A stretch of DNA of 64,000 nt from Candidatus Falkowbacteria bacterium (GCA_012800315.1 JAAZJO010000010.1:45942-109941), one strand, 5' to 3'. Counted from the stretch's first letter, positions 25,607 to 64,000 are shown. Program-made: numbers and translations. Notes: generated by a model from the letters alone, not told the origin.

Positions 25607-25645
25607 AAAACCACCCTACGGAATCAGGGTGGTTTGTTGTTTTTA
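25607..25645 (+). terminator. Rho-independent terminator after ftsK
   Basis: Hairpin ccaccct-acggaatc-agggtgg followed by tttgttgtttttatttc. Confidence 0.6.
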
Positions 25646-25675
25646 TTTCTTTATAATTTTGGTATAATAGGCTAT

Positions 25676-36332: not shown

Positions 36333-38318
36333 ATGTCTTTAAATAATTTTTTTAATCCAGCAGCTGTGGCAGTGGTCGGAGCCTCTAACCAGAAAACAAA
36401 AATTGGGCGCCAGATTCTTGATAATTTAATTAAGGGCGGCTTTAAAGGAAAGATCTTTCCGATTAATTTAAAAGAAAAACAAATCGCTGGTCTAAAGGTT
36501 TATGCTAGCTTAGAAAACCTGCCTTTAAAAGAATGGCCGACTCTTTTAGTAGTTATTGCTATTCCTATGCCTTTTGTTTTAGCCGAGATAAAAAAATGCG
36601 TTAACTTAGGAATTAAAAATATTATTATCATTACAGCTGGTTTCAAAGAAGTTGGCGGAGAAGGTGAAATAGCTGAAGCGGAAATTGCTAAGTTAGCTGC
36701 TAAGCACCAATTAAATATTCTTGGTCCGAATTGTTTAGGATTAATTAATACTTGGGGTAAGTTGAATGCCAGCTTTAGTTCGGCAGATACAAGCACCGGC
36801 AATATTGCTTTTTTATCTCAGTCAGGCGCAATTGGCTCAGCTGCGCTTGATTGGTTAAAAGTTAAAGATTTTAATTTTGCTTATTTTATTAGTTTAGGCA
36901 ATAAGGTGGCTATTGATGAAAATCAAGTGATTGAATATCTAGCCTCTGATTCACGAATTGATTTAATTGTTGTTTATTTGGAAGAAATTAAAGATGGTCA
37001 GAAGTTTATGAATTTAGTTTCTCGTTTAATTAAGTATAAGCCGGTAGCTATTTTAAAAGCCGGTCAAAGTATAGCTGGTGGACAACTAGCCTTGTCACAT
37101 ACTGGCTCTTTAGCTGGTTCTAGTGCGGTGATTAAGGCGGGTGTTAAAAGAGCGGGGGCTATTTGGTTAGAAAATTTAGGAGAATTATTTAATTTATTAC
37201 TTATTTTTCAAAAGAAAAATTGCTGTGATAATCAGAGTCAGGAGCTGTCTTTAATTACTAATGCGGGTGGTTTAGCAGTTTTAACGGTTGATGAAATTGA
37301 GCGACAAAATATTTCTTTTGGTTATAGTTGGGATTTACTAGGTGATGCTAATGGAGAAAAATATGAAGCAGGATTAAAAAAAGCGCTAGCGGATAAAAAA
37401 GTTCATAATCTTTTAGTTTTATTAACACCGCAAACTTCAACTGAGCCACTTAAAACAGCAGAAGCAGTGATTAAAATAGCTAAAAAATATCCAACTAAAT
37501 TAGTGATGACTAGCTTTGTTGGTGGCCAAGCAGTAGCTGAGGCGCGTGATCTTTTAGAAAAAAATAGCATCCCAACTTTTGAATATCCAGAAGAGGCAGT
37601 GCGCAGTTTTAAAAAATTAGTTGATTATAAAAAAAGTGCTAAGACTATTAAGTCATACAAATTGCTAAAAACAACAATGAAAAAACCAATTACTGAAACT
37701 GATTATTTAAAATCAATGGCTCTTTTGCGTGAATATGATATTCCGACAATTAAAACGGTTAAATATGAGGCAACTCAGGTAAAATCATATCAGTATCCAG
37801 TGGTTTTAAAAATTGTGGGACCTGATTTTTTACATAAAACTGATAAGCAGGCAGTGGTCACTAACATTAAAGATGAGCAGACTCTAAAAAAGATGGCAGC
37901 TCTTTTAGAGAAACGGCATAAAAAGATCTTAGCTAATAAACAAAATTATTTAATTGTTCAAAAACAGGCGGATCATTTTCAAGAAATAATTATGGGCTTT
38001 AAGCGTGATGCCTCTTTTGGACCGGTGATGATGATCGGTTTGGGTGGTATTTATGCTGAAGTTTTTAAGGAAGTAAAATTGGCGATGAGTGATTTAGATT
38101 TACAGACTGCTTTAGAAAAAATTGCTGAACTAAAAATCTACCCAATTTTAAATGGGGCGCGCGGGCAAAAGAAATACGATCTTAAGAGTTTAGCTGAAGC
38201 CTTTGTTAATTTATCTCGCTTAGCTAACGAGCATCCGGAAATTAAGGAATTTGATCTTAATCCTTTATTTGTTTTTGAAAAGGGGGTGTTGGCAGCTGAT
38301 GTTAGAATTATTATTTGA
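36333..38318 (+). CDS. Acetyl-CoA synthetase (ADP-forming, fused alpha-beta; NDP-forming acyl-CoA synthetase family)
   Basis: CoA-binding N-terminus AVAVVGASNQKTKIGRQILDNL, a succinyl-CoA-synthetase-like flavodoxin domain, and a C-terminal ATP-grasp. The ORF is 661 aa. Confidence 0.8.
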   Translation: MSLNNFFNPAAVAVVGASNQKTKIGRQILDNLIKGGFKGKIFPINLKEKQIAGLKVYASLENLPLKEWPTLLVVIAIPMPFVLAEIKKCVNLGIKNIIIITAGFKEVGGEGEIAEAEIAKLAAKHQLNILGPNCLGLINTWGKLNASFSSADTSTGNIAFLSQSGAIGSAALDWLKVKDFNFAYFISLGNKVAIDENQVIEYLASDSRIDLIVVYLEEIKDGQKFMNLVSRLIKYKPVAILKAGQSIAGGQLALSHTGSLAGSSAVIKAGVKRAGAIWLENLGELFNLLLIFQKKNCCDNQSQELSLITNAGGLAVLTVDEIERQNISFGYSWDLLGDANGEKYEAGLKKALADKKVHNLLVLLTPQTSTEPLKTAEAVIKIAKKYPTKLVMTSFVGGQAVAEARDLLEKNSIPTFEYPEEAVRSFKKLVDYKKSAKTIKSYKLLKTTMKKPITETDYLKSMALLREYDIPTIKTVKYEATQVKSYQYPVVLKIVGPDFLHKTDKQAVVTNIKDEQTLKKMAALLEKRHKKILANKQNYLIVQKQADHFQEIIMGFKRDASFGPVMMIGLGGIYAEVFKEVKLAMSDLDLQTALEKIAELKIYPILNGARGQKKYDLKSLAEAFVNLSRLANEHPEIKEFDLNPLFVFEKGVLAADVRIII

Positions 38319-40668: not shown

Positions 40669-42315
40669 ATGTTAAAAAAATTTTTTAATCAGCAAATTAA
40701 TAGCATCACAGTAGCAGCGGCCCTAGTCGCTTTGTCTTCGCTTTTTTCGCGGCTCTTAGGAGTTATTCGTGATCGTATTTTAGCGGGGCAATTTGGGGCC
40801 GGTACTGATTTAGATATTTATTATGCGGCTTTTCGTGTACCTGATTTAATTTATAATCTTATTGTTTTGGGTGCTTTATCAGCTGGTTTTGTGCCGATAT
40901 TTACTTCTTTAATTAAAGATTTTTTACATGATAAAGATAAAGATTCTGATCCCGTAGAAAAAAACCAGGAGGCTTGGAGTCTAGCTAATAATATTTTAAA
41001 TATTATTTTTATTGCTTTAGTGGGCTTATCAGTTTTGGGAATTATTTTTGCTCCAGCTTTAACTCGTTGCTTAACTCCAGGATTTAGTGCAGAAAGTCAG
41101 GCGATGACTACTTCTTTAACGCGTATCATGTTTCTTTCTCCAATATTTTTAGGTATCTCTGGTGTTTTAGGTGGTATTTTACAGTCATTTAAAAGATTTT
41201 TGGTTTATTCAATTGCTCCTATTTTTTATAACTTAGGTATTATTATTGGTGCTTTATATTTTGCGCCTCGTTGGGGTCTTGTTGGCTTGGCTTGGGGTGT
41301 GGCTTTGGGCGCCTTTTTACACATGGCTGTTCAAATTCCAGCAGTTTATAATTTAGGTTTTCGTTATAAATTGAAAATTGCTTGGTCTGATTTTTATACC
41401 AAAAAGATTTTTAAGATGATGGTTCCGCGTACGATGAGTTTAGCAATTTCTCAAATAAACTTAATTGTGATCACCGTAATTGCCACTGGCTTATCAAGTG
41501 GATCTTTGGCGGTTTTTAACTTAGCTAATAATTTACAATCTTTTCCGATTGGTATTTTTGGAATTTCTTTTGCAATTGCTGCTTTTCCTAGTTTAGCAGC
41601 CACTGCTTTTGATAAAGAAAAATTGACGGCTAATTTTTCACAAACTTTTCGTCAGATTTTATTTTTCATTGTCCCAGCAACGGTTTTAATAATTGCTTTG
41701 CGTGCTCAAATTATTCGGGTCATTCTTGGAACCGGTAATTTTGATTGGCAAGATACGATTATGACAATGAATACGCTTGGTTTTTTTGCTTTAAGTTTAT
41801 TTGCTCAAGCAACAATTCCTTTATTAGTGCGCGTTTTTTATGCTCGCCAAAATTCAGCCACCCCTTTTTATCTTGGTTTAGTAACGGTTTTAGTTAATAT
41901 CGGCTTATCTTTTCTCTTTTCAAAAACGCTTGGCGTGGCTGGTTTAGCCTTAGCTTTCTCTATCGCTAATATTTTGAATTTTGTGCTACTTTGGATTTGG
42001 TTGTATTTTTCGGTGGGCACTTTAGATCTTGGCAAGATTATAATTTCTGTGTTAAAATTTACTGTCAGCGCGATTGGCGCTGGTTTAGTCACCCAGATTA
42101 TGAAGGTGGTTATTTGGCCATTTATTGATATGACCACTTTTGTCGGCGTCTTTACCCAATTAGTCGTTTGTGGATTATCTGGAACTTTGGTTTATCTATT
42201 GCTTTGCTTATTACTTAAGAGTGAAGAATTATTTAGATTTATTGCTTCTTTACAGAATCGTTGGCCACTTAAGAAAATTAAGTTGGGCGACCAGGGGGAA
42301 GCAAGAGGAGTTTAA
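40669..42315 (+). CDS. murJ: Lipid II flippase MurJ (MviN family)
   Basis: VAAALVALSSLFSRLLGVIRDRILAGQFGAGTDLDIYYAAFRVPDLIYNL matches the MurJ N-terminus. About 14 TM segments. Confidence 0.85.
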   Translation: MLKKFFNQQINSITVAAALVALSSLFSRLLGVIRDRILAGQFGAGTDLDIYYAAFRVPDLIYNLIVLGALSAGFVPIFTSLIKDFLHDKDKDSDPVEKNQEAWSLANNILNIIFIALVGLSVLGIIFAPALTRCLTPGFSAESQAMTTSLTRIMFLSPIFLGISGVLGGILQSFKRFLVYSIAPIFYNLGIIIGALYFAPRWGLVGLAWGVALGAFLHMAVQIPAVYNLGFRYKLKIAWSDFYTKKIFKMMVPRTMSLAISQINLIVITVIATGLSSGSLAVFNLANNLQSFPIGIFGISFAIAAFPSLAATAFDKEKLTANFSQTFRQILFFIVPATVLIIALRAQIIRVILGTGNFDWQDTIMTMNTLGFFALSLFAQATIPLLVRVFYARQNSATPFYLGLVTVLVNIGLSFLFSKTLGVAGLALAFSIANILNFVLLWIWLYFSVGTLDLGKIIISVLKFTVSAIGAGLVTQIMKVVIWPFIDMTTFVGVFTQLVVCGLSGTLVYLLLCLLLKSEELFRFIASLQNRWPLKKIKLGDQGEARGV

Positions 42316-46127: not shown

Positions 46128-46527
46128 GTTTATTATTTTTACTGACGGAGGAGCGCGGGGCAATCCAGGACCAGCTGGGATTGGCGCGGTTATTTATAAT
46201 GAGGACAAAGTTTTAGTAGCAGAGATTTCTGAATATTTAGGCGAGACTACTAATAATCAAGCTGAATATAAAGCTTTGATTGCTGCTTTAAAAAAAGTAA
46301 TCACTTTAGGAGCAATTGAAGTGGAGTGCTATCTTGATAGTGAGTTAGTGGTTAAACAATTAAATCGGGAATATAAAATAAAGAACAAAGAGCTGGCGCC
46401 TTTGTTCTTAGAGATACATAATTTAAGTTTAAATTTTAAAAAGATTTCTTTTATCCATATTCCGCGTGAGCGGAATAAGGAGGCAGATAAATTAGCTAAT
46501 GAGGCAATGGACAGAGGCGCTAAATAA
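46120..46527 (+). CDS. rnhA: Ribonuclease HI
   Basis: IIFTDGGARGNPGPAGIGAVI and TNNQAEYKALIAAL are RNase H catalytic motifs. It overlaps the recJ stop by 8 nt. Confidence 0.8.
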   Translation: MSKFIIFTDGGARGNPGPAGIGAVIYNEDKVLVAEISEYLGETTNNQAEYKALIAALKKVITLGAIEVECYLDSELVVKQLNREYKIKNKELAPLFLEIHNLSLNFKKISFIHIPRERNKEADKLANEAMDRGAK

Positions 46528-46538
46528 GCGCCTTTTTA
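46515..46538. terminator. Bidirectional terminator between convergent rnhA and the minus-strand por-pilin operon
   Basis: Hairpin aggcgc-taaataa-gcgcct followed by ttttt on plus and an A/T run on minus. Confidence 0.45.
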
Positions 46539-46540
46539 TA

Positions 46541-47734
46541 TTATGAATTTGGACAAGGATTATTCATCGGTTCATTATATTGATAATGCCACCATTCTCC
46601 ACAATATCTAACCCAGCCGGCCGCCTGCATTATTTCTTTTAATTTTTCTACATCAGCATCAGAATATTCAGCATTAGCTTTTCCGCCAATGTGATTACAA
46701 GATTCCGTGCCTTTAATACAAAGATCAATTGCTTTACCACTGCGGTGACCACCGCAACTTCCCGGTTTAGCTACCCATTTTTGGGCTTCTAGTTCGTTGC
46801 CGTATGTTCTTAGGGCGGCTTCCCATAATTCTTGTTGGTGTTGAGCTGTTCTAAAGGCGCTAACGACATGTAGATTAACACCTCGTTTTTGAGCTTCGGA
46901 GATAGCTAAAGAGAGACCATCAATTCCTTCAGGGGCGAGAAAAGGTGAGGTAGCGCTCGTTGAAACTAAATCAGAGATAGGTTGAATTTCTTTATCTTTA
47001 GCACAGGTACCGACAGCATTTTCAGTACTATCACTACCATTTTTTATAGGGGTGATAACTATTTTTTGAACTGAGGAAACATTAACTCCTTTTAGATTAA
47101 CTAAATCAGGATTGACGATTGTTAAAATTGTGTAGGAAACTAGCAGAATGATTAAGCCACTAATACTACCGATTATTAATTCCTTCGCTTTAGTAATTTT
47201 TGAGGCATCGCCAGCTGAAATTAGCCAGAGCAAACCACCAGCCATTAGCATGATGGCGGCGAGAATACCGACAATGCCCAGAGCATAATTATATAAACCA
47301 GCAATATATTGCCCAATCCAAGGAATATTACATTTTTCACCCACGGGACAAGTTACAGGAGCTAATTTATTTAGCCCAGGTATTTGCACCTGAAAATCAG
47401 GGATAGTAAAGCGGGCAGCTACTGGTTCTTGTACTGGTTCTTGGGTTTCACAACAACAGACAGCCTCATCTAATCCTTTAGTTTTTGGTTTTGGCGTGGC
47501 GGAGCAGAAGTCATCGCTAAATTGAGTCATTTGCTTCTCTTCACATGTCCCAGATTTAATTATTACTTTACTTATTATGGTGTTTTGCTGATAAGAAGTT
47601 GTCATTGCTTTATTTATCACTGACCAAGTACAATTTCCGCCAGCGCTGACTGGATTTGTGGTAGATAAAAAGAGGCTCAAAAAAAGAAGAGGAAATAAAA
47701 TCAAGAGTATAGATTTTTTTATCTTTAAATTCAT
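46541..47734 (-). CDS. Secreted Cys-rich protein with T4SS-pilin-like two-helix hairpin fused to C-terminal M15 (VanY-like D-Ala-D-Ala carboxypeptidase) domain
   Basis: Signal peptide and CCCE motif. Hairpin is GIVGILAAIMLMAGGLLWLISAGDASKITKAKELIIGSISGLIILLVSYTILTIVNP. M15 motifs are VVSAFRTAQHQ, HRSGKAIDL and EWWHY. The ATG overlaps the porB stop as ATGA. Confidence 0.6.
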   Translation of the reverse strand: MNLKIKKSILLILFPLLFLSLFLSTTNPVSAGGNCTWSVINKAMTTSYQQNTIISKVIIKSGTCEEKQMTQFSDDFCSATPKPKTKGLDEAVCCCETQEPVQEPVAARFTIPDFQVQIPGLNKLAPVTCPVGEKCNIPWIGQYIAGLYNYALGIVGILAAIMLMAGGLLWLISAGDASKITKAKELIIGSISGLIILLVSYTILTIVNPDLVNLKGVNVSSVQKIVITPIKNGSDSTENAVGTCAKDKEIQPISDLVSTSATSPFLAPEGIDGLSLAISEAQKRGVNLHVVSAFRTAQHQQELWEAALRTYGNELEAQKWVAKPGSCGGHRSGKAIDLCIKGTESCNHIGGKANAEYSDADVEKLKEIMQAAGWVRYCGEWWHYQYNEPMNNPCPNS

Positions 47735-48603
47735 ATTTTATATTTTTTTATATTTTCGGCGGCTAATTTTTGGATAATAGAAATATCAGCTTCTTTTAGA
47801 TGTTTAAAACGTCCTTGTTTTTTTAAATATTCTTCAACTGCTTTAGCTTGGAAATTAGAATTAATACTGGAAGCACTTAATTGTCCATTAATATATTCTA
47901 ATAACGGATAAAGACCAGTTTGGACGGCTAATTTGCCCAGCATTGCTGCTTCGTTATTATTTATTTTCCAACCGGGAATGCAGGGGCAGAGTATTTGTAG
48001 ATAACTTGGGCCATCTGTTTCTAAAGCCTTTTTTACTTTATTAGTAATATCATCTGGAAAGCCGGCAGAGGATTGAGCAACATATTTTAAATTATGTGCT
48101 AGAGCAATAGCTAGCATATCTTTTTTTCTTTGAGTTGAGCCGCTGGAGACGGTGCCTGAGGGGGAAGTAGAGGTACTGGCGCCGTAGGGAGTAGCACCCG
48201 AGGCCTGTATACCAGTATTTGAATAAGCTTCGGTATCATAACAGATATATAAAACATTTTCTCCGCGCTCCCAGAGACCACTAATTAAGCCAAAGCCAAT
48301 ATCAAAAGTGCCACCGTCGCCCCCTTGAACAACTACTTTAGTTTTTTTATCGCCTTTTTTATTTAGAGCGGCCTTAATGCCTGAAGCTACAGCGGCAGCA
48401 TTTTCAAACAAAGAATGAATCCAGGGTAAACCCCAAGCACTTTGCGGATAAGCAGTTGTGGTTACTTCTAAGCAACCAGTGGCGTTAGCGATAATAACAT
48501 TTTTATGTAAGCCGCGCATTACTGCTTGTGCAGCTGATAATTGACCGCAGCCAGCGCAACCGTTGTGGCCAGGGGAGAGAAATTTAGTATTTTTATTATT
48601 CAT
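47731..48603 (-). CDS. porB: 2-oxoacid (pyruvate):ferredoxin oxidoreductase beta subunit (TPP-binding)
   Basis: Cys cluster GHNGCAGCGQL. TPP-binding motif QGGDGGTFDIGFG. I took the start at the internal Met MNNKNTKF (48603) since the longer ORF overlaps the upstream gene. Confidence 0.85.
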   Translation of the reverse strand: MNNKNTKFLSPGHNGCAGCGQLSAAQAVMRGLHKNVIIANATGCLEVTTTAYPQSAWGLPWIHSLFENAAAVASGIKAALNKKGDKKTKVVVQGGDGGTFDIGFGLISGLWERGENVLYICYDTEAYSNTGIQASGATPYGASTSTSPSGTVSSGSTQRKKDMLAIALAHNLKYVAQSSAGFPDDITNKVKKALETDGPSYLQILCPCIPGWKINNNEAAMLGKLAVQTGLYPLLEYINGQLSASSINSNFQAKAVEEYLKKQGRFKHLKEADISIIQKLAAENIKKYKI

Positions 48604-49621
48604 AATCACAAACGTTATCTGTAAAAGCTTTACGTCGACAATTCCCATGATTTTGGTTTGAACCACAGGTTGGGTGTTGTTCTGTAGAAGCGCATTTATA
48701 ATCATCTTCTTTGGGGTCTCCACAGGCTGCTCCAGGCGGTAGACAAGGTTGACAAGATCCATTTTGACAATATCCAAAAGCAGTTAATGGAACTGTTGTT
48801 TGTCCAGAGGTTGATAATTTTGTGTAAGTACAAGCCTCTTTATCTTTTTTTCCTTCACAACCACCAGAAAATAAATCTGATGAATTTGGAATATACGGTG
48901 CGGTAGTAGTATTTGTTTTTTCGCATTTATATTGGTCTGCAGACGAGACTCTAATATACCCTAAATCTAATGATCCACAAGGATAATTTGAGTTAATAGT
49001 GACTCCTGAGGCCTCTAAGTCTTTGGCCCATTTGCAATCACTTAATTCTCCGGTTCCTAAGTTTGATTTGCAACAACAATCATCATAGTGATTATTTACT
49101 TCTTTAGCTACTAATTTATTTACAGCGATAGGTTGTAAATTAACCAGTTTAGGATTAATAGTGTTTAATATTGTCCAGGAGATAAGTAAAATAATTAAAC
49201 CAACGATGCTGCCAGAAATTAAATTTTTTGCTTTAGAAATTTTACCTGAATCACCACCAGAAGTTAACCAGATAAGACCAGCACCCATTAATATAATAGT
49301 GGCTAAAATTCCGACAATAGCTAGTCCATAATTATAAAAAGATCCAATATATCTTGGTAATAAATCAGTATAGATTTTTCCATCTTTTAACGAGTCAACT
49401 GGAATCGGAGTTCCTTTTTGAAATTCAGAGTCAGGAATAGTAACCTGCGGCGTAAAGTTTAGGGTATCTTCCAGATCTACTTTGGCGGCCATAGCTGATA
49501 GAGGAACTGATAAAATAAATATTGCGCCTATAACTTGTAGCCCCAAAAATAGTCTGATTAAAATTTTATTAAGATTAGATTTAGGTTTAAACATATTATT
49601 TGCGTAACTATATTTTACCAA
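48596..49621 (-). CDS. Secreted T4SS-pilin-like hairpin protein with Cys-rich C-terminal domain, inserted between porA and porB
   Basis: Signal peptide LIRLFLGLQVIGAIFILSVPLSAMA. Hairpin GLAIVGILATIILMGAGLIWLTSGGDSGKISKAKNLISGSIVGLIILLISWTILNTINP is a paralog of the one in 46541-47734. CCCK motif is followed by about 25 Cys in 170 aa. Confidence 0.5.
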   Translation of the reverse strand: MVKYSYANNMFKPKSNLNKILIRLFLGLQVIGAIFILSVPLSAMAAKVDLEDTLNFTPQVTIPDSEFQKGTPIPVDSLKDGKIYTDLLPRYIGSFYNYGLAIVGILATIILMGAGLIWLTSGGDSGKISKAKNLISGSIVGLIILLISWTILNTINPKLVNLQPIAVNKLVAKEVNNHYDDCCCKSNLGTGELSDCKWAKDLEASGVTINSNYPCGSLDLGYIRVSSADQYKCEKTNTTTAPYIPNSSDLFSGGCEGKKDKEACTYTKLSTSGQTTVPLTAFGYCQNGSCQPCLPPGAACGDPKEDDYKCASTEQHPTCGSNQNHGNCRRKAFTDNVCDYE

Positions 49622-50759
49622 TAAATTTTATTTTTTGACCATTCTTTTTTTTCACATCAGTTACTATTTCTCTAATCATTTTTTGCGTGATATCACGTCC
49701 GCCTAAGCCAACAATATAATTTTTAATATTTAATTGATTATTTGGTAAAGAAGCTTGGATGTCAGAAAACAAGGGACCGGCTTGCCCTAAACTAATTGCT
49801 TTTTCAATGACAGCAATATTTTTGGCCGTTAATAAAATTTGGCTAACTTCTTTTGCAGGAAATGGGCGATAAGTTTTTATTTTCAAAAGGCCAGTTCTCT
49901 GATCATTTTTTAGAGTTTCGCGAATGGTACCAATAACTGAGCCCATAGCTACTAAAATAGTTTCTGGTTTTTTAGGACCAGAGTATTCAACTAAGCCGCT
50001 ATCTTTATTTTTTCTCCCTAAGAGATGCATTAAATCTTTATATTCTTTTTTAATGATAGTTAAACTAGCTGTTAAATCATGGTGTAAGTTTTCCCGGGTT
50101 TCAAAATAATCAGCAGGGGTAGCAAAAATACCAAAAGTCATTGGTTTTTTTGGATTTAAAAACTGATCCGCTTTAGGGGCGTAGTTTGGGAGAAATTTTT
50201 TTATTATTTTTGAGGAAGGGATAATAACCGGCTCAAAAGCATGAGTTAAAATAAAACCATCAACATTAACCATCACTGGCAGGCGTAATTGCTCAGCAAT
50301 TTTGTAAGCTAAAATGTGAAGATCAACAGCTTCTTGATTAGAATCAGCAAAGAAATGAATCCAGCCAGCATCACGAATAGTCATAACATCGCTATGATCA
50401 TTCCAAATATTTATAGGAGCAGAAATAGCGCGATTAGCGCAAGTCATAACTACGGGCAATCTTAGGCCAGCGATGTTAAAAATAACCTCAGTCATTAATA
50501 GCAAACCTTGTGAACTAGTAGCGCTATAACTACGCACACCGGTAGCGCTAGCGCCTAAAATAATTGAGGCAGCCGCAAATTCGCTTTCTGCTCTTAGATA
50601 TTCATAATCAGCCTCGCCATCCGCTTTTAGTTTGGCTAGTTTTTCAACAATGTGAGTTTGGGGGGTGATTGGGTAAGCGGAAATGACTGCTGGTTTAATA
50701 TTTTTAATCACAGCCGCAATAGCTTGAGAACCTTCTAAGAGTTGTTTTTTATTTTCCAT
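49608..50759 (-). CDS. porA: 2-oxoacid (pyruvate):ferredoxin oxidoreductase alpha subunit
   Basis: 383 aa. GSQAIAAVIKNIKPAVISAYPITPQT is the PorA N-terminus. Transketolase-like Pyr domain. Confidence 0.85.
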   Translation of the reverse strand: MENKKQLLEGSQAIAAVIKNIKPAVISAYPITPQTHIVEKLAKLKADGEADYEYLRAESEFAAASIILGASATGVRSYSATSSQGLLLMTEVIFNIAGLRLPVVMTCANRAISAPINIWNDHSDVMTIRDAGWIHFFADSNQEAVDLHILAYKIAEQLRLPVMVNVDGFILTHAFEPVIIPSSKIIKKFLPNYAPKADQFLNPKKPMTFGIFATPADYFETRENLHHDLTASLTIIKKEYKDLMHLLGRKNKDSGLVEYSGPKKPETILVAMGSVIGTIRETLKNDQRTGLLKIKTYRPFPAKEVSQILLTAKNIAVIEKAISLGQAGPLFSDIQASLPNNQLNIKNYIVGLGGRDITQKMIREIVTDVKKKNGQKIKFIGKI

Positions 50760-50764
50760 ATTAC

Positions 50765-51040
50765 TTAAAAATCATTTTCCATTTTTATAGCTTTAACTGG
50801 GCATTCGTGTGCACATAGACCACAGCCTTTGCAATAGTCATAATTTATTTTTGCTTTTATTTTTTCCGTTTTAATCTGTTTTTTCATTTCAATACAGCCT
50901 TCTGGACAAAGCTTGGCACATAATGAGCAGCCGACACAGGTATTTAAATTAATTACTGGCTTGACTGTTCGCCAAGAGCCAGTTTTATTAGCTAGGCTAG
51001 AGTTTGCTTGAGCGGAAAGATTAGTGATTGGCGCTTTCAT
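50765..51040 (-). CDS. porD: 2-oxoacid:ferredoxin oxidoreductase delta subunit (2x[4Fe-4S] ferredoxin)
   Basis: Two CxxCxxCxxxCP motifs: CVGCSLCAKLCPEGC and CKGCGLCAHECPVKA. Confidence 0.85.
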   Translation of the reverse strand: MKAPITNLSAQANSSLANKTGSWRTVKPVINLNTCVGCSLCAKLCPEGCIEMKKQIKTEKIKAKINYDYCKGCGLCAHECPVKAIKMENDF

Positions 51041-51581
51041 AATTTTTAGTGATGGCTAAAATATTTTTTTTAATTATTTCTTGTCCCTTTTCTTTAAATT
51101 TTTCAGTAATGGCTTTTTTTAATGATTCTAAGCTAACTAGACCGGTATATTTAGCAAAGGCGCCAAGAATAGTGGTATTAACTATATTTTTCCCGAATAT
51201 TTCCATGGCAATTTCGGTGGCGGCGGTGAAATAAAGATATTTAAATTTTTTCTTTAATTCCGGCCATTTATTTTCTGGAGCATTAATAATTATAATTGTT
51301 TCTGGAGTGCGGCCAGCAAAAACATCAACACTTTCTAATAGTGTAGCATCTTGAATAATTAAAATGCTCGGCTGATAAATTTGTTCACGAGTTGTGATTG
51401 CTTGATGACTGAGGCGGACGAATGATTGGATTGGAGCACCAGTTCTTTCTACACCAAAATTAGGAAAGGCCTGGGCTTCATAGCCTTCGTAAAAAGCAGC
51501 TAGGGCGATAAGCTCAGTGGCTGTAACCACTCCTTGCCCACCGCGTCCATGAATTCTTATTTGTTCCAGTTTATTTTTCAT
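51021..51581 (-). CDS. porG: 2-oxoacid:ferredoxin oxidoreductase gamma subunit
   Basis: IRIHGRGGQGVVTATELIALAAFYEGYEAQAFPNFGVERTGAP is the gamma-subunit signature. Confidence 0.85.
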   Translation of the reverse strand: MKNKLEQIRIHGRGGQGVVTATELIALAAFYEGYEAQAFPNFGVERTGAPIQSFVRLSHQAITTREQIYQPSILIIQDATLLESVDVFAGRTPETIIIINAPENKWPELKKKFKYLYFTAATEIAMEIFGKNIVNTTILGAFAKYTGLVSLESLKKAITEKFKEKGQEIIKKNILAITKNYESANH

Positions 51582-51588
51582 TTTTAGT

Positions 51589-52365
51589 TTAGTTATTTTC
51601 GGTGGTTGTGCTTAGTGATAGTTGCTGTAAAATACCGTCAAACAATTCTCTAAACTTTTCAGTTGGATAATAACCGGTAAGAGGATAATTATTAACAAAC
51701 CAAGTTGGTGTGCCTTGTATTTGGAGAGCTTGACCATCATCATAGTCTTTTTTAATTTCGCTGATATAGGTTCGGTTGTTAAAACAAGCTTCAAATTTCG
51801 CCATATCTAAAACATTGAGAGAGTTAGCCCAAGAAATAATATCAGCTTTTATGGTCGTAGGCTCTTTTAAATAATCTTGATTAAGGAATAGAGAATCAAA
51901 AGCTTCCCAATACTGCCCTTGTTCACCAGCACAACGAGCAGCTAAAGAGAGATCTATTGAAGTGTCATGGATTGGATAATCGCGAACAACGTATCTGACG
52001 GTTTGCTTATATTCTTCAGTTAATTTTCTCATTTCTTCAGAGGCTTGTTTGCAGAAAGGGCAGGCGAAATCATTAAATTCAACGATAGTGATTTTAGGAT
52101 CAGGGGATCCGGTAGCATAGGGACTTCCTCCGTTAATTAAATTTAAATAGATTTGACCTTGATTTTCTAGAGCGTTTAAAGATTCTCCAGCTTGGATACG
52201 CTTTACTTCCTTAATAACATAGATAGTTGAGGCGATGATGGCAGCTAAAACTAAACTTAGGATAAGTAAAAGAATTATCCCCCACCATTTTTTATACCAA
52301 GGGACAAAAAGTTGGCTGTGTCGCGCCTTCATTTCAACATATTTTATTCTGTCGTCTAAATTCAT
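51589..52365 (-). CDS. Membrane-anchored DsbA-like thioredoxin-fold thiol:disulfide oxidoreductase
   Basis: N-terminal TM helix WWGIILLLILSLVLAAIIASTIYVI. Active site is FNDFACPFCKQ (CPFC). It sits 7 nt upstream of porG on the same strand. Confidence 0.65.
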   Translation of the reverse strand: MNLDDRIKYVEMKARHSQLFVPWYKKWWGIILLLILSLVLAAIIASTIYVIKEVKRIQAGESLNALENQGQIYLNLINGGSPYATGSPDPKITIVEFNDFACPFCKQASEEMRKLTEEYKQTVRYVVRDYPIHDTSIDLSLAARCAGEQGQYWEAFDSLFLNQDYLKEPTTIKADIISWANSLNVLDMAKFEACFNNRTYISEIKKDYDDGQALQIQGTPTWFVNNYPLTGYYPTEKFRELFDGILQQLSLSTTTENN

Positions 52366-57181: not shown

Positions 57182-60100
57182 ATGAAATTTTCTATTAATC
57201 CAATAAAGAAGAATATTAGGAAAACAAGTAAAAAGACTTTAGTTTTTTCACTTGTCTTAGTAATGTTTTTTTCTTTGTTATTAATGCCATTAAAGACTGT
57301 CCAGGCGCAATTAGTGGTGGCGGAGCCAGTGGTAGAGGCACAAACTGGCATTAAAATAGCCATGGATAAAGCGGAGTCAGCTTATAATAAAGCCAAGGCA
57401 ACTTTAAGTAAATTACTTTTAAAAGCGGGAGCCACCTCTTTTCAGCAAGTTGTAAGAGCAGCTTTAAATAAAATAGCTTATGATACGGCAACCTATTTAG
57501 GTTCTGGAGACAGGGGGCAAAAACCTTTATTTATCACTGAGGATTTAGGTTCTTATTTAGCTAATGTTGGTGATGCAGCCGCTGGTCAATTTATTGAATC
57601 TTTTGTTACTAGATTAAGTGTAGGGATTAGTGCTGAGTGCCAAAAGACATATCAGGCTTGCGAGGAAAATTGTCAAAATTATTATGAAATTGGTTCAAAT
57701 GAGGGAATAACTTGTATTAAGGAGTGCAGAGAGAAAGCCTATTTATGTGGTCGGGGTGAGGTAGGTGTTGGCACGAGTAGTAAAAGCGGTTTGAGTGGTG
57801 CGGGAGCTGCTTCAGCAACCCATCTAGGCGCTTTAAATATATGCCAACCATCTTCTTTAGAAGCGAAAGTTAAGATTGGTTTAGGTTTAGTTGAGTATCA
57901 AAGCCCAATGATGAATGCTAATTGTACCGCTTCTAAAATGATTAGTAATTGGGATGATGCCGCAACTAAAATGGCTGATTGGAAAGATCCAAATTTCCTA
58001 GACAACATTAAAGGTATATTTAATCCCACTTCTCACGATTTAGGAATATACATGACTGCTAGAAGTGATTTAGCTTCAGCTAAAGCAGGCGCTAGTACTT
58101 TATCTTTAAATGATTTTTTAGTTAATAAAGGTTGGTTAAGTAAAAGAAATGCGGCTGGTGAAATGGTTGGTACTCCTGGTGATGCTGAAAGAAAAGCACA
58201 AACAACTGAGGCAGCCGCTAAAGAGTCTTTACTACGTACTACCGGCGATATTGTGGTTGACGCGGCCAATGTTTTTGTTAATCAATTAGCGATTACCAAG
58301 TTTAATGATTTAATGTCTAATTTAGGCAAGAAGGTCACTGATGATTCTAGCGGTAGCAGCCGACGACTTTCAGGAGATTTAACTAATCCTGAATCTGATT
58401 CAACTACTTCTTATAGCGCGACTGGATTAAAAGAGTCTTTGTATTCAATTATTGAGCCAGATTTTGGGGTTAAAGCAGATTATGATATTTTAGCTAGTTT
58501 AACAGTTTGTTTTGATAAAAAAAATCCCGGTCCAACCGAGTGTGTTATTGATAGTAAGTTTAGTCAAGCTATTAGTGAAAATAAAACAGTGATTGAAGCA
58601 GTTAGAGAGGGTTATATAAACAGTGATTGGCAGTTAACAGAAAAAACGATAGAAGGCGCTTATTCTTTACGCAATGTTTCTATTTTGAGAAAATATCGCA
58701 TTTTACCAATTGGTTGGGAGGAAGCGATTAAACGAGCTTATGCTGACTCAGCTAAGGTTAAGAGAATTACGGTGATGGATATGATTTCTTGTTTTGATGA
58801 GTCTGATGAATATCAAAAGTTTAGTTCTAACTTTAATGTGGCTGATCAAGAGTGGTGTCGTGGCTTAGTTGATCCTAACTGGGTTTTGAAAGCACCACTT
58901 AATTATTGTAGCAAGCAAGGATCGGGAGCACATATTATTAGCAAAATAGTGTCTCCTTCTTATGGCGTTAAAGGTGCGGCTGATTATGTAGCTAGTGTTT
59001 TTAGTGTTAGTCGTGATGAGGAATATTGTGCTGATGAAAAAACTTGTATTAAGGAAAAGGCTGATGGTAGTTGTGAAGCCTATGGATATTGTAATGAGGA
59101 AAAGAGAACTTGGAATTTTTCAGCTGATAGTTGTGATCCGATTTATAATACTTGTCAAAATTTCACTAATGCGGCCACCGGTCAAAATGTTTCTTATTTA
59201 AAAAATACTTTAGATTACGCTAATTGTGATACAAATAGCGTTGGTTGTCGTCAATATTCTCTTAGTGGTTCTTACGATGTAGCTACTGGTGTTGTTTCTT
59301 GGGGCAAGAATAAAACAATTTATTTTAATAATAATTTAGAAATTTGTGATAAAAATAGTGAAGGTTGCACAGAGTTGATTAGAGTTAAGCCGACTTGGGG
59401 AGTTAATTTAATAATGAATTCAAACTTTAAAGATGACACCATCAACAGGCCACCAAAAAATTGGTACTTTGATTTTAATTCTTCCTTAAATACTTTTCAG
59501 GTTGTTAATTTAGCCGAAGAGCCAATTGGTGGAGTTGGTCGGGCCTTAAAAATCTCTGGTGAAAGAAAAGGCAGTTCTCCTGAACATATTTCAGTTAAAG
59601 TTGTTTCCAATGCCCAAAAATCTCTTTTGCCTGATAATTTTCAATTAATTCCTAACCAGGCCTACACTCTCAGTGTTGATGTTTATATTCCTGAGGGAAC
59701 AGCGGGAACAGCTAGAATTTATTTGGGCGAATTATCAGATGGTTTTGTGGCCTCAACCTCTAAGACTGGAGCTTGGCAGCACCTATCAGTGACCCGAACG
59801 GCTGCCGCTAATTATACTGAGCCGGTCTTCTATATTGAGAATCAAAATTTCGGCACTAAGAATGTAATGTATCTTAGAAATCCTAAATTTGAAGTTAGTA
59901 ATTACGAAACTAACTTTAATGCTTATGGCAGTGCTTATAAAGTTTATGAAAAATTAATTCCGCCATATTTAGAAAGTGTTTGTTATAATAATATTTCTAG
60001 TGCCACTAAAGACTATACCTTAAAAACTAACGCTCCGGCTGTTTGTTATGATTTCGCTCGTCGCTGTAATCGTGATGAAGTTGGTTGCGAGAAGTTTGTG

Positions 60101-63100
60101 GGGGTAAAAAATGGCATCACTGTTTCTGCCCAAGTAACCGCCTCTGATTATTGCTGGGGAGATTGCTTAGATTATGATGTTTATGTTTCTAAAGGAAGTT
60201 ATTTTAATTCTCCAGAAGCAGAAAATATTATTCCTACTAAAGCCACTGCTTGTCGGGCTGAAGTGGTTGGTTGTAATGAATTTACTAACCTTGATGCTTT
60301 AAATGTTGGTGGAGAGAATAAAGAATATTATTCTGCCATGAAGCGATGCGTTAAACCGTCGCAGGGGACTTGTGGTACTTTTTATAGTTGGGAGGGCACA
60401 AAGAATGGTTATCAGTTAAGATCTTATGTTTTAGAAAGAGAAATAAATAAGAATCAACCAAAGTTAACTTTTGGAGAAGTAAATGATTCGGCTACTTGTG
60501 ATCAAAATATTTATCATAAGAAAGTTGGCGAAGTAGGCTATAACCCAGATTGTTTAGAGTTTATTAATTCGGCTGGCGATGTTTTTTATGCTTTGCTTTC
60601 AGCGACAATAACTTGTTCCGAGGATTGTCATACCTATCGGATGACTGAAAAAAATATTGATAGAAGCATTACTTCAAGAGATGCTTGTGTTGAATCGGGT
60701 GAAAATGGCAGCACTTATTGGGACGCTGTGGCTGGTGCCTGCTATTCCTGTTTAAATGGTGGTCAATGGGATAATGCAACTAAATCTTGTTTGTATCAAG
60801 CTATTCCTGGAGAGGGCAAGATCTGTACGGCTGCCGAAAGTGGTTGTCGTGAATATAATGGTAATAGTGGTAATAATGTGAAACTGCTTACTTCGTTTGA
60901 TTTTGAAAACGGAAGCCAGGGTTGGCTATCAGCTAACGGCACTCTTAACACTGTAGCCGTGGCTAATGAAAAGGACGGTCATTCAATTTATTATGAAAAT
61001 AGTAAAAATTATTTTGTTAGGACTAAGGTTAGTCAGTTAGTTAAAGAAGGGAAGTCTTATGCGATTCGCTTTATTGCTAAGGCTGATGAGACCACTAATT
61101 TAAATATTTTCTTTACCGATAATGCGGATAATAATCCACAGAGAGCTAGTTTTTCTGCCGGCAAAATAACTCTAAAAGGTGGTGGCGAGTGGCACATCTA
61201 CCAAGCTAATTTAGCTAATTTAGACCATGCTATTTCTGAAAATGAAACCTTGACAATCATGGCTGATAATAATTTTTATTTTGATGACTTTGCTTTAACA
61301 GAAATAACTAATCGTCATTATTTAGTAAAGAATTCTAGCGTTGTACCGGATATTTGTTTTTATGATATTAATAGTGTTTATCGGGGAGCGGAATATAATT
61401 TAGGTTGTACTCAATATAAAGATCGTGATAATTTAACTCATAATTTGCGCAAGTTTTCTAAGCTTTGCTCAAGTTCAGCTGTGGGTTGTGAACAAATGAT
61501 CGCGACTCAAAATTATTCTTCATACGCTAGTGGAATTTGGGGTGATACTAATAATAATGGAGTTTGTGATGTAAATGAAAAAGACTGTGTTCAAGTCGGT
61601 GGCGATGAAATTATTTATACAATTTTTGATTCTAGCAAACAATGTAATTCAGCTGATTTAGGTTGTAGTCGTTTAGGACAGGGAATAGCCGCTGGCTCTG
61701 ATTGGTCAGATGTCTTTAGAAAAAATAATCCAAATCTATACGCTAGCGCTTTGTGTGGTCCAGCTCAAGTTGGTTGTGAGAAATGGATAGCTACCGATGG
61801 CTCGGAAAGTTATTTTAAGAATCCAGGAAATGAGGTTTGTCAATATCGTAGTAGTCATGATTTAAATAATCCAGTAAAAGCTTGGTATAAAATTCCAGTT
61901 AAGCGTTGTGATTCTAATGGAAATGGTGTTATAGACACTGAAACAGAAAAGGCGGGAGCAGTTTGCTCAACCGATAGTATGTGTTCAGCTGGTTCTTGTA
62001 TTATTGATAATAATGATTATCCTTGTGATTATTCATATTTTAAAACTTTTGGTATCGGTGGTGCGGGCAATCAAGTTCCAGTACCAAGCAAGCAAGTTGC
62101 TTTGTGTCAAGCAACTGCTTCTGGCTGTACAGAATATATTGACCCAGTAAGTAGTTTTTCACCAGAACTTTTAGATAATCCGAATGATAATATTCAGCAA
62201 GTTGCCTTAAGCCCAAATAAATTATATATCCTCTCTGTTGACAAGGGGGATAAGGATAATCAAAGTGATACGATTCTGAAATTTGAGGCTATTATTAAAC
62301 CTTTATTAGCAGATAATAATTTAGGGATTTCTACGACGACTATTACAATAGATAAAAATACTAGTGACCGGATTATGTTTGCTTCTTTAGCTAATTCCTC
62401 AGTTACTATTTCTGGCGGCGAGGTAGGGAAAAAGATTGAGTTAAAAGAGGCAATTATTAATTATCAACTCAAAAATAGTATAGATGTAACTAGTTGCAAC
62501 GGAGTGGTTAATCCAGGGGTTGGCTGTATTCTTTTTAATGAAAGAACGGTAGCTGGCGCAACCGGTTTAGCAGCGAATAAGTTTGATGCTGTTAATAGTG
62601 TTAGTGGACAAGCGCCACAGCTTTGTGATTCAGATTCAGATAATTGCACCGCTAATCAGCTAGTTAAAGTAAAATTAGACAGAGTTTGCTCTAAGTGGCT
62701 TGATTGTGTAGCTTATTTTAATGATCCTAATACCAATGAACGAGTCTGTTTAGCTTTAGGACAATGTACTCGGCTTGATGATAAGAATGAATGTGCTAAT
62801 TTTGAGGATGTTCCAAGTGGCAATACCTCTTTTGCTTCAGCGAGAAATAAAGATAAGACTGGTTATTATCTACTTAATAATTATCATTTAAGCGAGATGA
62901 AAGAAGTTGGTCTTAAAGTGCCTGGTGCTAATTATGATTTTGAAAATGGAGTGGCTCCCCTATGTTCTCAAACAACTGGCGAAGCTTGTTCTTTGGAAAC
63001 TTTGAATAGTTTAATTATTAGCGAGCCAGAAAAAGCGCCAACTGATTATCCTGCTCAGGGCACTGGCTATCTAAGAGTGCCCCCTTCTACAATTATTTCA

Positions 63101-64000
63101 CTGGGAGGAGAAAAAAGTTTAACTGTCCAGGGAGGCCAAACTTATTTCCTTAACTTCTTACTTAATACCCGGGGATCTATTGGTGCTCAGGTTGAAATTA
63201 CTTCTGATAATAAAAAGGTTAATGTTAAAAAAGATTTCGTTTCTAATAATGGCTGGACTCGTCAAATCATGCCTTTTAATGTTCCGGGTGAAGCAACGAA
63301 AATAAAAATAGATTTACAGGTAAAAAACATTTCAGGGGCAGAAGCTTCTAGATCTACGGCAGTTTATTTTGATGATATAAATATTGAACCGGTTTTAGAA
63401 GTTGGGAGCAAGGATGGCTATAAGCAATATGTTGCTCGCGAATGTCGTTTATATCCAAATAATGAAAGTTTAACTTGTGTTAATAAGAATGAAAATGTTT
63501 TATCTGATGGTTGGGAGGGTTATTGTCTAGAACATGATCCTGATAATCCATCGGTTTGTTTACTTTGGTATCCGGTTGATAAAATAAATGCGGCGGAATT
63601 ATCAAAAAATAATAGTGGTTATCAAGGAACCTTCCCGCTTAATTATTGCACTGAAGTTAATGGTAATTTTGAATTAGTGAAATATCTTAAAGCGGCTCAA
63701 GTTTCTTTTACTTCCGGTACAGCCTCAGGTTATGCTAGCAATATTAAAGGAGGGGACCATTTTTGTACAACGGATAATGATGGCTGTAATGGCGATGGCG
63801 ATCCTAATTATAAGACGATTATTGCTTATGGACGATATTCTAATGATCATTCGTATGTGAAAAAGCTTTGTGTTCCTAAGGAAGAAAAATTAATTCTAAA
63901 AACTAACTCAGCCGTTGTGTCTGATTTAGGTAAATGTACTGAGGATGGAGTTCTTTATTATGAGGGTTGGGCTATGATTGGTGATGGTTTAAAAACTAAA
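57182..64000 (+). CDS. Giant secreted Cys-rich surface protein (partial, at least 2273 aa, continues past window end) with three CBM4/9-like jelly-roll modules
   Basis: I translated it by eye from the ATG at 57182 and met no stop through 64000. Signal peptide is LVFSLVLVMFFSLLLMPLKTVQA. It is not in the ORF track, consistent with having no stop in the window. CBM-like modules sit at about 59415-59895, 60885-61305 and 62939-63390 (ending YFDDFALTEI and YFDDINIEP). A C-x5-6-GC-x-E motif recurs nine times or more. Confidence 0.6.
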   Translation, partial: MKFSINPIKKNIRKTSKKTLVFSLVLVMFFSLLLMPLKTVQAQLVVAEPVVEAQTGIKIAMDKAESAYNKAKATLSKLLLKAGATSFQQVVRAALNKIAYDTATYLGSGDRGQKPLFITEDLGSYLANVGDAAAGQFIESFVTRLSVGISAECQKTYQACEENCQNYYEIGSNEGITCIKECREKAYLCGRGEVGVGTSSKSGLSGAGAASATHLGALNICQPSSLEAKVKIGLGLVEYQSPMMNANCTASKMISNWDDAATKMADWKDPNFLDNIKGIFNPTSHDLGIYMTARSDLASAKAGASTLSLNDFLVNKGWLSKRNAAGEMVGTPGDAERKAQTTEAAAKESLLRTTGDIVVDAANVFVNQLAITKFNDLMSNLGKKVTDDSSGSSRRLSGDLTNPESDSTTSYSATGLKESLYSIIEPDFGVKADYDILASLTVCFDKKNPGPTECVIDSKFSQAISENKTVIEAVREGYINSDWQLTEKTIEGAYSLRNVSILRKYRILPIGWEEAIKRAYADSAKVKRITVMDMISCFDESDEYQKFSSNFNVADQEWCRGLVDPNWVLKAPLNYCSKQGSGAHIISKIVSPSYGVKGAADYVASVFSVSRDEEYCADEKTCIKEKADGSCEAYGYCNEEKRTWNFSADSCDPIYNTCQNFTNAATGQNVSYLKNTLDYANCDTNSVGCRQYSLSGSYDVATGVVSWGKNKTIYFNNNLEICDKNSEGCTELIRVKPTWGVNLIMNSNFKDDTINRPPKNWYFDFNSSLNTFQVVNLAEEPIGGVGRALKISGERKGSSPEHISVKVVSNAQKSLLPDNFQLIPNQAYTLSVDVYIPEGTAGTARIYLGELSDGFVASTSKTGAWQHLSVTRTAAANYTEPVFYIENQNFGTKNVMYLRNPKFEVSNYETNFNAYGSAYKVYEKLIPPYLESVCYNNISSATKDYTLKTNAPAVCYDFARRCNRDEVGCEKFVGVKNGITVSAQVTASDYCWGDCLDYDVYVSKGSYFNSPEAENIIPTKATACRAEVVGCNEFTNLDALNVGGENKEYYSAMKRCVKPSQGTCGTFYSWEGTKNGYQLRSYVLEREINKNQPKLTFGEVNDSATCDQNIYHKKVGEVGYNPDCLEFINSAGDVFYALLSATITCSEDCHTYRMTEKNIDRSITSRDACVESGENGSTYWDAVAGACYSCLNGGQWDNATKSCLYQAIPGEGKICTAAESGCREYNGNSGNNVKLLTSFDFENGSQGWLSANGTLNTVAVANEKDGHSIYYENSKNYFVRTKVSQLVKEGKSYAIRFIAKADETTNLNIFFTDNADNNPQRASFSAGKITLKGGGEWHIYQANLANLDHAISENETLTIMADNNFYFDDFALTEITNRHYLVKNSSVVPDICFYDINSVYRGAEYNLGCTQYKDRDNLTHNLRKFSKLCSSSAVGCEQMIATQNYSSYASGIWGDTNNNGVCDVNEKDCVQVGGDEIIYTIFDSSKQCNSADLGCSRLGQGIAAGSDWSDVFRKNNPNLYASALCGPAQVGCEKWIATDGSESYFKNPGNEVCQYRSSHDLNNPVKAWYKIPVKRCDSNGNGVIDTETEKAGAVCSTDSMCSAGSCIIDNNDYPCDYSYFKTFGIGGAGNQVPVPSKQVALCQATASGCTEYIDPVSSFSPELLDNPNDNIQQVALSPNKLYILSVDKGDKDNQSDTILKFEAIIKPLLADNNLGISTTTITIDKNTSDRIMFASLANSSVTISGGEVGKKIELKEAIINYQLKNSIDVTSCNGVVNPGVGCILFNERTVAGATGLAANKFDAVNSVSGQAPQLCDSDSDNCTANQLVKVKLDRVCSKWLDCVAYFNDPNTNERVCLALGQCTRLDDKNECANFEDVPSGNTSFASARNKDKTGYYLLNNYHLSEMKEVGLKVPGANYDFENGVAPLCSQTTGEACSLETLNSLIISEPEKAPTDYPAQGTGYLRVPPSTIISLGGEKSLTVQGGQTYFLNFLLNTRGSIGAQVEITSDNKKVNVKKDFVSNNGWTRQIMPFNVPGEATKIKIDLQVKNISGAEASRSTAVYFDDINIEPVLEVGSKDGYKQYVARECRLYPNNESLTCVNKNENVLSDGWEGYCLEHDPDNPSVCLLWYPVDKINAAELSKNNSGYQGTFPLNYCTEVNGNFELVKYLKAAQVSFTSGTASGYASNIKGGDHFCTTDNDGCNGDGDPNYKTIIAYGRYSNDHSYVKKLCVPKEEKLILKTNSAVVSDLGKCTEDGVLYYEGWAMIGDGLKTK

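Follow-up and report, generated by a model that had tools for sequence, protein, structure and literature searches.

A VirB2-like membrane hairpin fused to an M15-family zinc peptidase at the end of a dsbA-por operon in Candidatus Falkowbacteria

The stretch of DNA analysed here, 64,000 nucleotides from a Candidatus Falkowbacteria bacterium and referred to below as the window, contains a gene, hairpin2, whose start codon overlaps the stop codon of porB, the gene for the beta subunit of pyruvate:ferredoxin oxidoreductase (POR). Its product joins a pilin-like membrane hairpin to a peptidase domain. The locus raises the question of what such a protein does, and what it has to do with the oxidoreductase genes among which it is encoded. 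The answer that we consider likely is that hairpin2 is a membrane-tethered, extracytoplasmic M15 peptidase of peptidoglycan stem peptides that depends on a DsbA-like oxidoreductase and belongs to a modular family of hydrolases carried on a common hairpin.

The original prediction, made from the sequence, was a fusion of a pilin-family hairpin and a VanY-type M15 peptidase, and this fusion is borne out by three Pfam matches that all lie above their gathering cut-offs: VanY (PF02557; E 2.6e-12, 47.1 bits against a cut-off of 25, residues 278-386), Peptidase_M15 (PF01427; E 2e-7, 31.5 bits against 27, best stretch 358-387) and T4SS_pilin (PF18895; E 9.4e-7, 29.3 bits against 26.6, residues 139-206). 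The motifs quoted in that prediction are all present, namely CCCE (residues 93-96), the AGG..W..SAGD..K..KAK hairpin (which reads AGGLLWLISAGDASKITKAKELIIG), SAFR (292-295), HxxGxAxD (as HRSGKAID, 330-337) and EWWH (380-383). A protein search showed that public assemblies contain a protein identical to hairpin2 (P0001). An AlphaFold2 model was built from an input alignment of 36 homologs and had a mean predicted local distance difference test (pLDDT) score of 82. The layout of the gene and its product is as follows.

46541-47734, minus strand: hairpin2 coding sequence, ATG start, 397 amino acids; hairpin-anchored M15 peptidase (Pfam VanY, Peptidase_M15 and T4SS_pilin)
47642-47734, minus strand: residues 1-31, Sec-type signal peptide (MNLKIKK, hydrophobic core, predicted cleavage between NPVSA and GG; AlphaFold2 helix at 6-22)
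47423-47641, minus strand: residues 32-104, N-terminal beta domain with six cysteines (C35, C64, C77 and the CCC at C93-C95); predicted extracytoplasmic
47321-47422, minus strand: residues 105-138, pre-hairpin motif (FxxPxxQIxIPG ... C129-x5-C135-IPW)
47114-47320, minus strand: residues 139-207, T4SS_pilin (VirB2-like) two-helix membrane hairpin with the short Lys-rich loop SAGDASKITKAK
46958-47113, minus strand: residues 208-259, linker (NP..L..LK; NGSDS; C244)
46565-46957, minus strand: residues 260-390, LAS-fold zinc peptidase of family M15 (VanY/LdcB/VanX type)
46745-46747, 46724-46726 and 46586-46588, minus strand: zinc ligands H330, D337 and H383
46595-46597, minus strand: catalytic E380, which together with R295 completes the site

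The peptidase assignment had been made to depend on the zinc-binding triad (H, D, H). The triad is intact and is accompanied by the catalytic Glu and the substrate Arg; R295, Q300, H330, D337, E380, W382 and H383 are invariant across the 36 full-length homologs. The active-site codons read gtg (46745-47), atc (46724-26), ttc (46595-97) and atg (46586-88) on the plus strand. An H-x6-D/E-x2-H zinc site with a catalytic Glu and an Arg is the set found in VanX, VanY and LdcB, and the motifs align with those of LdcB and VanXYc. A search with the family profile ranked LdcB LD-carboxypeptidases best (E 3.7e-13 to 1e-8), followed by VanXYc, Ply500, VanX and VanY, with both zinc motifs aligned in these neighbours. 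LdcB was also the top Foldseek match, and VanX, VanXYc and VanY were among the closest folds. On profile, motifs and LAS fold, the domain is a member of family M15. The best NCBIfam match of hairpin2 was DdpX (PRK10178; E 1.3e-13). The equivalog cut-offs for VanX/DdpX (NF007557 and NF033115) were missed at 51.1 bits against 176 and 22.3 bits against 320, and that for VanXY was likewise missed by a wide margin. Judged from these relatives, the most likely activity is that of a carboxypeptidase that removes terminal D-Ala from stem peptides (as a DD- or LD-carboxypeptidase) near the membrane surface, with endopeptidase activity as a possible alternative.

In the AlphaFold2 model, two long helices (139-172 and 177-207) are joined by the Lys-rich loop, and the 260-390 domain is compact with pLDDT above 90. 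The N-domain has strands within residues 35-96 (pLDDT about 80-93), and residues 220-240 of the linker have low pLDDT. A signal peptide followed by two transmembrane helices with a short basic loop, as seen in both the sequence and the model, is the topology of PF18895. From the signal peptide and the three Lys residues of the loop, an extracytoplasmic location is predicted for both globular domains. The protein would thus be exported by Sec into the membrane, with the Cys-rich beta domain and the M15 peptidase both outside, and the VirB2-like hairpin would join these two outer parts through a short loop that faces the cytoplasm. The 14 cysteines of hairpin2 fall in even groups outside the hairpin (six in the N-domain, two in the pre-hairpin motif, six in the linker and peptidase), which fits an oxidised extracytoplasmic protein. 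In the homolog alignment C35, C64 and C93-95 of the N-domain are conserved at 90% or more; in the pre-hairpin motif P112 is invariant and C129, C135, P138 and W139 are nearly so; in the linker, homologs with an M15 head conserve N208, P209, G233, S234, D235 and C244.

The gene is the last of seven (dsbA-porG-porD-porA-hairpin1-porB-hairpin2) that are spaced by -20 to +13 nucleotides:

51589-52365, minus strand: membrane-anchored DsbA-like thiol:disulfide oxidoreductase, first gene of the operon (Thioredoxin_4, E 5e-26; DSBA, E 2.5e-17)
51021-51581, minus strand: porG
50765-51040, minus strand: porD
49608-50759, minus strand: porA (porG, porD and porA assigned from open reading frames, ortholog domains and tblastn synteny)
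48596-49621, minus strand: hairpin1, ATG at 49594 or TTG at 49621 (PF18895, E 2.9e-7, 30.9 bits), with a Cys-rich, non-enzymatic C-terminal head
47731-48603, minus strand: porB (POR beta), likely ATG at 48603 (TPP_enzyme_C, E 3.7e-20)
47731-47734, minus strand: ATGA overlap of the hairpin2 start and the porB stop (the plus strand reads tcat)

POR is a four-subunit enzyme, and the genes of its gamma, delta and alpha subunits lie upstream of porB; their orthologs in L001, L003 and L005 carry POR_N/PFOR_II, Fer4 and POR domains. The porB gene, whose homologs encode 288-291 amino acids, overlaps the hairpin1 stop by 8 nucleotides. The description of hairpin2 as a second hairpin paralog agrees with the presence of T4SS_pilin in hairpin1 as well, with 48-53% identity between the two over the hairpin region. 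Pfam detected no enzyme domain in hairpin1; its Cys-rich head had no Pfam match and was modelled by AlphaFold2 from database homologs with pLDDT below 50. This head might be a binding module or a partner for hairpin2. The ATGA overlap, also part of the original prediction, was read directly at 47731-47734, and because of it hairpin2 would be translationally coupled to porB. The DsbA-like protein has an N-terminal transmembrane segment and a CPFC motif, both visible in its sequence, and would be the probable folding catalyst for the 14 cysteines of hairpin2 and for the Cys-rich head of hairpin1.

A promoter scan performed no better than shuffled sequences (24 found against 20.9 expected) and says nothing for or against internal promoters. 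The convergent gene rnhA lies 13 nucleotides past the hairpin2 stop. A terminator-like hairpin at 46513-46535 (plus strand) overlaps the rnhA stop and reaches into this 13-nucleotide gap, with a T-run on the plus strand only. An Rfam scan of the window returned transfer RNAs only. The window also encodes an ADP-forming acetyl-CoA synthetase, MurJ and two Mur ligases (36333-38318, plus strand; 40669-42315, plus; 7154-8422, minus; 25634-27118, plus). The synthetase fits a POR-based fermentation, and MurJ and the two Mur ligases indicate that the organism makes its own peptidoglycan. An open frame of at least 2,270 amino acids (57182-64000, plus strand) with a signal-peptide-like start runs off the end of the window and resembles the gene of a giant protein destined for secretion or the cell surface.

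The arrangement was compared across 79 loci from species-representative genomes, many of them titled Candidatus Falkowbacteria or Patescibacteria. The complete dsbA-por-hairpin arrangement was found in 49 of the 79, and a hairpin gene directly follows porB in 61. Of 63 loci examined at the porB/hairpin2 junction, 34 retain the 4-nucleotide overlap, and all except one outlier have a gap of at most 21 nucleotides. The identity of recJ to that of the window ranges across the loci from 85% down to 49%, which indicates that the arrangement is old. Its neighbourhood consists of vertically inherited core genes (leuS, recJ, lepA, murJ). The slot before porB is uniform: T4SS_pilin was found in 65 of its 66 Cys-rich proteins and a hydrolase domain in none. 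In the slot after porB, 59 of 65 proteins have PF18895. Some loci depart from the common pattern. At L076 (1246-2571) the hairpin1 ortholog, represented by its N-terminal part and its hairpin, runs into porB (Pfam TPP_enzyme_C) in one open frame without an intervening stop; a genuine in-frame fusion of hairpin1 and porB, the loss of a stop codon and an error of assembly are all possible causes. At L074 (62-3776) the operon is rearranged, with two hairpin genes before porB and none after it, and rnhA directly follows porB. Many loci with full synteny (L006, L010, L011, L019-L022, L047, L072 and others) are titled 'uncultured Gammaproteobacteria', 'Bacillota' or 'Bacteroidota' and are probably mislabelled metagenome-assembled genomes.

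The fusion had been called an uncommon architecture, which was not supported as stated. In the protein search, the full-length M15 fusion came back in at least 34 clusters (90% identity); with the 61 genomes that have a hairpin gene after porB and the 22,153 matches to the hairpin module described below, the architecture is recurrent in Patescibacteria. No example of the hairpin-M15 fusion was found outside Patescibacteria. In many other proteins the resemblance stops after the N-terminal part and the hairpin, and NlpC/P60, Amidase_2, Peptidase_C39_2, 3D or M15_4 domains take the place of this peptidase. Among the 65 post-porB proteins, Pfam recognised VanY/M15 in 13, NlpC/P60 in 9, 3D in 4, Amidase_5 in 2, M15_4 in 1 and C39_2 in 1. 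Classification by motif and BLAST extended these counts, in which VanY-type heads are over-sampled since the genome scan used EWWH among its search patterns:

VanY-type M15 head: 22-25
3D head alone: 9
3D head with an HxH-type zinc-peptidase-like head: 7
NlpC/P60 head: 9
HxH-type zinc-peptidase-like head alone: 10
Other heads: M15_4, 1; C39-like, 1

A 32-locus cluster of heads mixes 3D heads, two HxH-type zinc-peptidase-like heads and double-headed proteins. The two HxH-type heads are not recognised by Pfam and have H..G.C.D ... H.H motifs (W.VTEAYP...CHYNG.C.D...GHLHV and SCHYGG...AVD...NHLHV); examples are at L022, L023, L027, L030, L032, L036, L039, L041, L051 and L052, some of them following a 3D domain as the second of two heads. 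By these motifs they look like HxH-type LAS zinc peptidases. The heads differ among close relatives: a VanY head is found at a recJ identity of 85%, one of the 3D/HxH cluster at 82%, VanY again at 79-80% and the 3D/HxH cluster again at 78%. Some genomes have two post-porB genes, and the head may change either by replacement in situ or by differential loss from tandem arrays, both being possible. In this family of Patescibacteria, a constant carrier composed of a signal peptide, a Cys-rich domain and the hairpin bears interchangeable peptidoglycan-hydrolase heads.

The place of the POR genes in this arrangement is clarified by loci that have none. At L018 (4864-9289) there are three hairpin genes and no por genes, with the same flanks as in the window: leuS, an exo/endo-phosphatase gene and dsbA on one side, and rnhA, recJ and lepA on the other. 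The other por-less loci (L048, L055, L073, L080 and L016) likewise retain dsbA followed by hairpin genes, with 2-4 of these per locus. In L048 (3890-10257), L055 and L073, dsbA precedes a run of four hairpin genes, and the heads that can be identified include NlpC/P60, 3D, M15 and amidase types. The L048 array has NlpC/P60, 3D and M15_4 heads and includes a fifth protein, with 3D, that has no Pfam hairpin match, and L080 carries an SLT head. The DsbA-like gene adjoins the hairpin genes whether or not a locus has por genes, so that dsbA and the hairpin genes form the constant partnership. The por genes may be passengers interleaved with it, or the reverse may apply. The association with POR would be one of co-transcription or co-translation with no shared function. 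A functional complex of POR and the hairpin proteins was rejected because por-less relatives with identical flanks retain the hairpin genes.

The hairpin itself was followed with a 116-amino-acid query searched against 1.84 billion cluster representatives. It matched 22,153 representatives at E of 0.001 or below and 3,749 at 1e-10 or below. The best 150 matches are mostly proteins of 300-600 amino acids, and several have two to six hairpins per chain. Five proteins (P0154, P0156, P0162, P0164 and P0248) are 450-620 amino acids long and contain three to six tandem hairpin modules in one chain. Among relatives of hairpin2, identity is 70% in the hairpin, 54% in the M15 peptidase and 18% in the N-domain, which is the least conserved part. 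In a control from the same genomes, the single transmembrane anchor of the DsbA-like protein had 46% identity against 48% for its catalytic domain. Certain Gly, Ala, Trp, Ser and Lys residues of the hairpin are invariant, which suggests specific helix packing with partners. Since no head is as well conserved as the carrier hairpin, the hairpin may dock or oligomerise. We infer that the hairpin is a conserved carrier or an oligomerisation or docking module, with the co-encoded hairpin1 as one candidate partner, and that it would be neither a passive anchor nor a polymerising pilus subunit.

That the hairpin might instead polymerise, as a true subunit of a type IV secretion system (T4SS) pilus with the peptidase exposed on the length or tip of the filament, is an explanation to which we give only a slim chance. 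The original prediction had the tether localise peptidoglycan trimming to a surface appendage or septal site, and neither placement was supported. In favour of a pilus are the PF18895 score above the cut-off and, weakly, an NCBIfam model of a pilin-like conjugal transfer protein, which hairpin2 matched below the cut-off at E 2.5e-4. Against this stands the size of the protein: mature hairpin2 has about 366 amino acids, far from the roughly 70-120 of a mature small pilin, and the masses of about 105 amino acids before and about 190 after the hairpin would be hard to pack in the manner of VirB2. The closest hairpin relatives are, as described above, mostly large multidomain proteins, some with several hairpins per chain. 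No T4SS domain (virB4, virB6, virB3) was detected in the ten large open reading frames of the window that were scanned, and the related loci show core genes only. The size of the flanking domains, the lack of T4SS domains in the scanned frames and the core-gene neighbourhood together argue against a polymerising pilin. An explanation that would account for the operon itself is that hairpin2 is a VanX/DdpX-like D-Ala-D-Ala dipeptidase or D-Ala harvester, with D-Ala converted to pyruvate and passed to POR. The best NCBIfam match (DdpX), the presumed translational link to porB and the ADP-forming acetyl-CoA synthetase in the window speak in its favour. The DdpX score of 51 bits is nevertheless far from the cut-off of 176, VanX and DdpX are cytoplasmic enzymes whereas hairpin2 carries a signal peptide and is predicted to be exported, and por-less relatives retain the hairpin genes, so that this explanation is hardly credible. 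The idea that D-Ala is fed into pyruvate was rejected because no D-Ala is released by the 3D, NlpC/P60 and other heads that occupy this slot in relatives.

A different target is the more serious alternative. The hairpin could direct the enzyme to a T4SS or a cell-contact zone, where heads matched to the wall chemistry of the host (M15, NlpC/P60, 3D, SLT, amidase) would open or weaken the host sacculus; we regard this as unlikely. It gains from the switching of head type between closely related genomes in which neither the carrier nor the porB junction changes, and from the arrays at L048, L055 and L073, whose enzymes between them cover glycan, stem-peptide and amide bonds. In a cultured Saccharibacterium, moreover, a T4SS and a series of VirB2-like pilins were found to be essential for epibiotic growth (Wang et al. 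2023, PMC10633639; PMC12102498), as were peptidase and lysozyme homologs beside virB4 (PMC10633639, PMC12102498). At the present locus, by contrast, the ten scanned frames are without a T4SS domain, the neighbourhood is one of vertically inherited core genes, and no immunity-like gene follows hairpin2, the convergent rnhA being 13 nucleotides away. A membrane-tethered head would also reach only a few nanometres, and modular shuffling of heads is common among housekeeping autolysins too. A broader form of the same idea holds that many 'VirB2 pilin arrays' of Patescibacteria are not pili but a delivery or anchoring scaffold for a polymorphic peptidoglycan-degrading toolkit. A DsbA-matured carrier would dock at a T4SS or cell-contact zone and present M15, HxH-type, NlpC/P60, 3D/SLT and amidase warheads that open the host wall during epibiotic attachment, the warheads being swapped by recombination in the hairpin-coding sequence. 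This too we consider doubtful. We lean somewhat towards the cell's own wall, rather than the host's, as the target.

The reading of hairpin2 as a tethered stem-peptide peptidase has points against it as well. All function is assigned by homology, and the link to DsbA is drawn from adjacency and cysteine content only. A carboxypeptidase would not be functionally interchangeable with the lytic 3D and NlpC/P60 heads at the same slot, which fits poorly with pure trimming of the wall. The high identity of the hairpin is partly a composition effect of transmembrane helices, the T4SS_pilin score of hairpin2 is just 2.7 bits over the cut-off, and the EWWH-based scan over-represents VanY-type heads in the counts.

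Among known systems, hairpin2 is closest to the LdcB enzymes (YodJ of B. subtilis, BaLdcB of B. anthracis, DacB of S. pneumoniae; MEROPS M15B), with which it has in common the LAS fold, the H-x6-D/E-x2-H site, the Glu and the Arg. LdcB is extracytoplasmic and membrane-associated and acts on peptidoglycan stem peptides, as is predicted for hairpin2. The two differ in that identity to the hairpin2 peptidase is about 21-24%, and in that the hairpin2 domain is shorter (about 130 amino acids) and has five cysteines. LdcB is tethered by an N-terminal anchor or a lipid, whereas hairpin2 has an internal two-helix hairpin after a Cys-rich domain. Unlike VanY, VanXY and VanX (M15B/M15D), hairpin2 is not part of a van cluster, and its scores lie far under their NCBIfam equivalog cut-offs. 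The phage endolysins Ply500 and LysB4 also have VanY-type catalytic domains; these are soluble L-Ala-D-Glu endopeptidases with cell-wall-binding domains, and hairpin2 is less similar to them than to LdcB or VanX. The VirB1-type hydrolases (PrgK, TraG of pIP501, CwlT) are membrane-anchored and modular, and their SLT/lysozyme, NlpC/P60/CHAP and metallopeptidase modules match the head range of the hairpin family (PMC12102498). Hairpin2 differs from them in its VirB2-like hairpin anchor and its single head per protein, and an M15 head is atypical of the VirB1 type. A VirB1-type hydrolase gene would be expected inside a T4SS cluster, with a product required to assemble the channel, whereas in all loci examined the dsbA-por operon lies between leuS and rnhA-recJ.

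The VirB2-like pilins and 'pilin arrays' of Patescibacteria belong to the same Pfam family as hairpin2, and were called by PF18895 in the work of Quinonero-Coronel et al. 2025 (PMC12102498). Hairpin2 differs from them in its 397 amino acids, its globular domains on both sides of the hairpin, its enzyme and the absence of virB4 from the window frames scanned. In protein clusters specific to freshwater, few domains are more abundant than PF18895 (10.1101/2025.04.23.650224). As searched, the text of PMC12102498 and PMC10633639 makes no mention of hydrolase fusions or of a por/dsbA context. The literature searched as a whole gave no description of hairpin-hydrolase fusions, of dsbA linkage or of por interleaving, which is no proof that none exists.

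Membrane-tethered M15 carboxypeptidases and the VirB2-like 'pilins' of Patescibacteria are each known already, and their combination was in no paper found. The PF18895 matches that are currently counted as T4SS pili need to be reread, since the hairpin carrier bears a full range of hydrolases, always has a DsbA-like neighbour and occurs mostly in proteins of 300-600 amino acids. The order dsbA-por-hairpin can be used as a synteny marker for the clade. Genes for exported wall enzymes and for the subunits of a cytoplasmic oxidoreductase are mixed here in a deeply conserved order, even to the point of a 4-nucleotide overlap, which makes this a clear example of an operon architecture that outlives its functional logic. 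The hairpin family provides clonable candidates for how ultrasmall epibionts may remodel their own wall with a minimal genome, or may breach the wall of their host.

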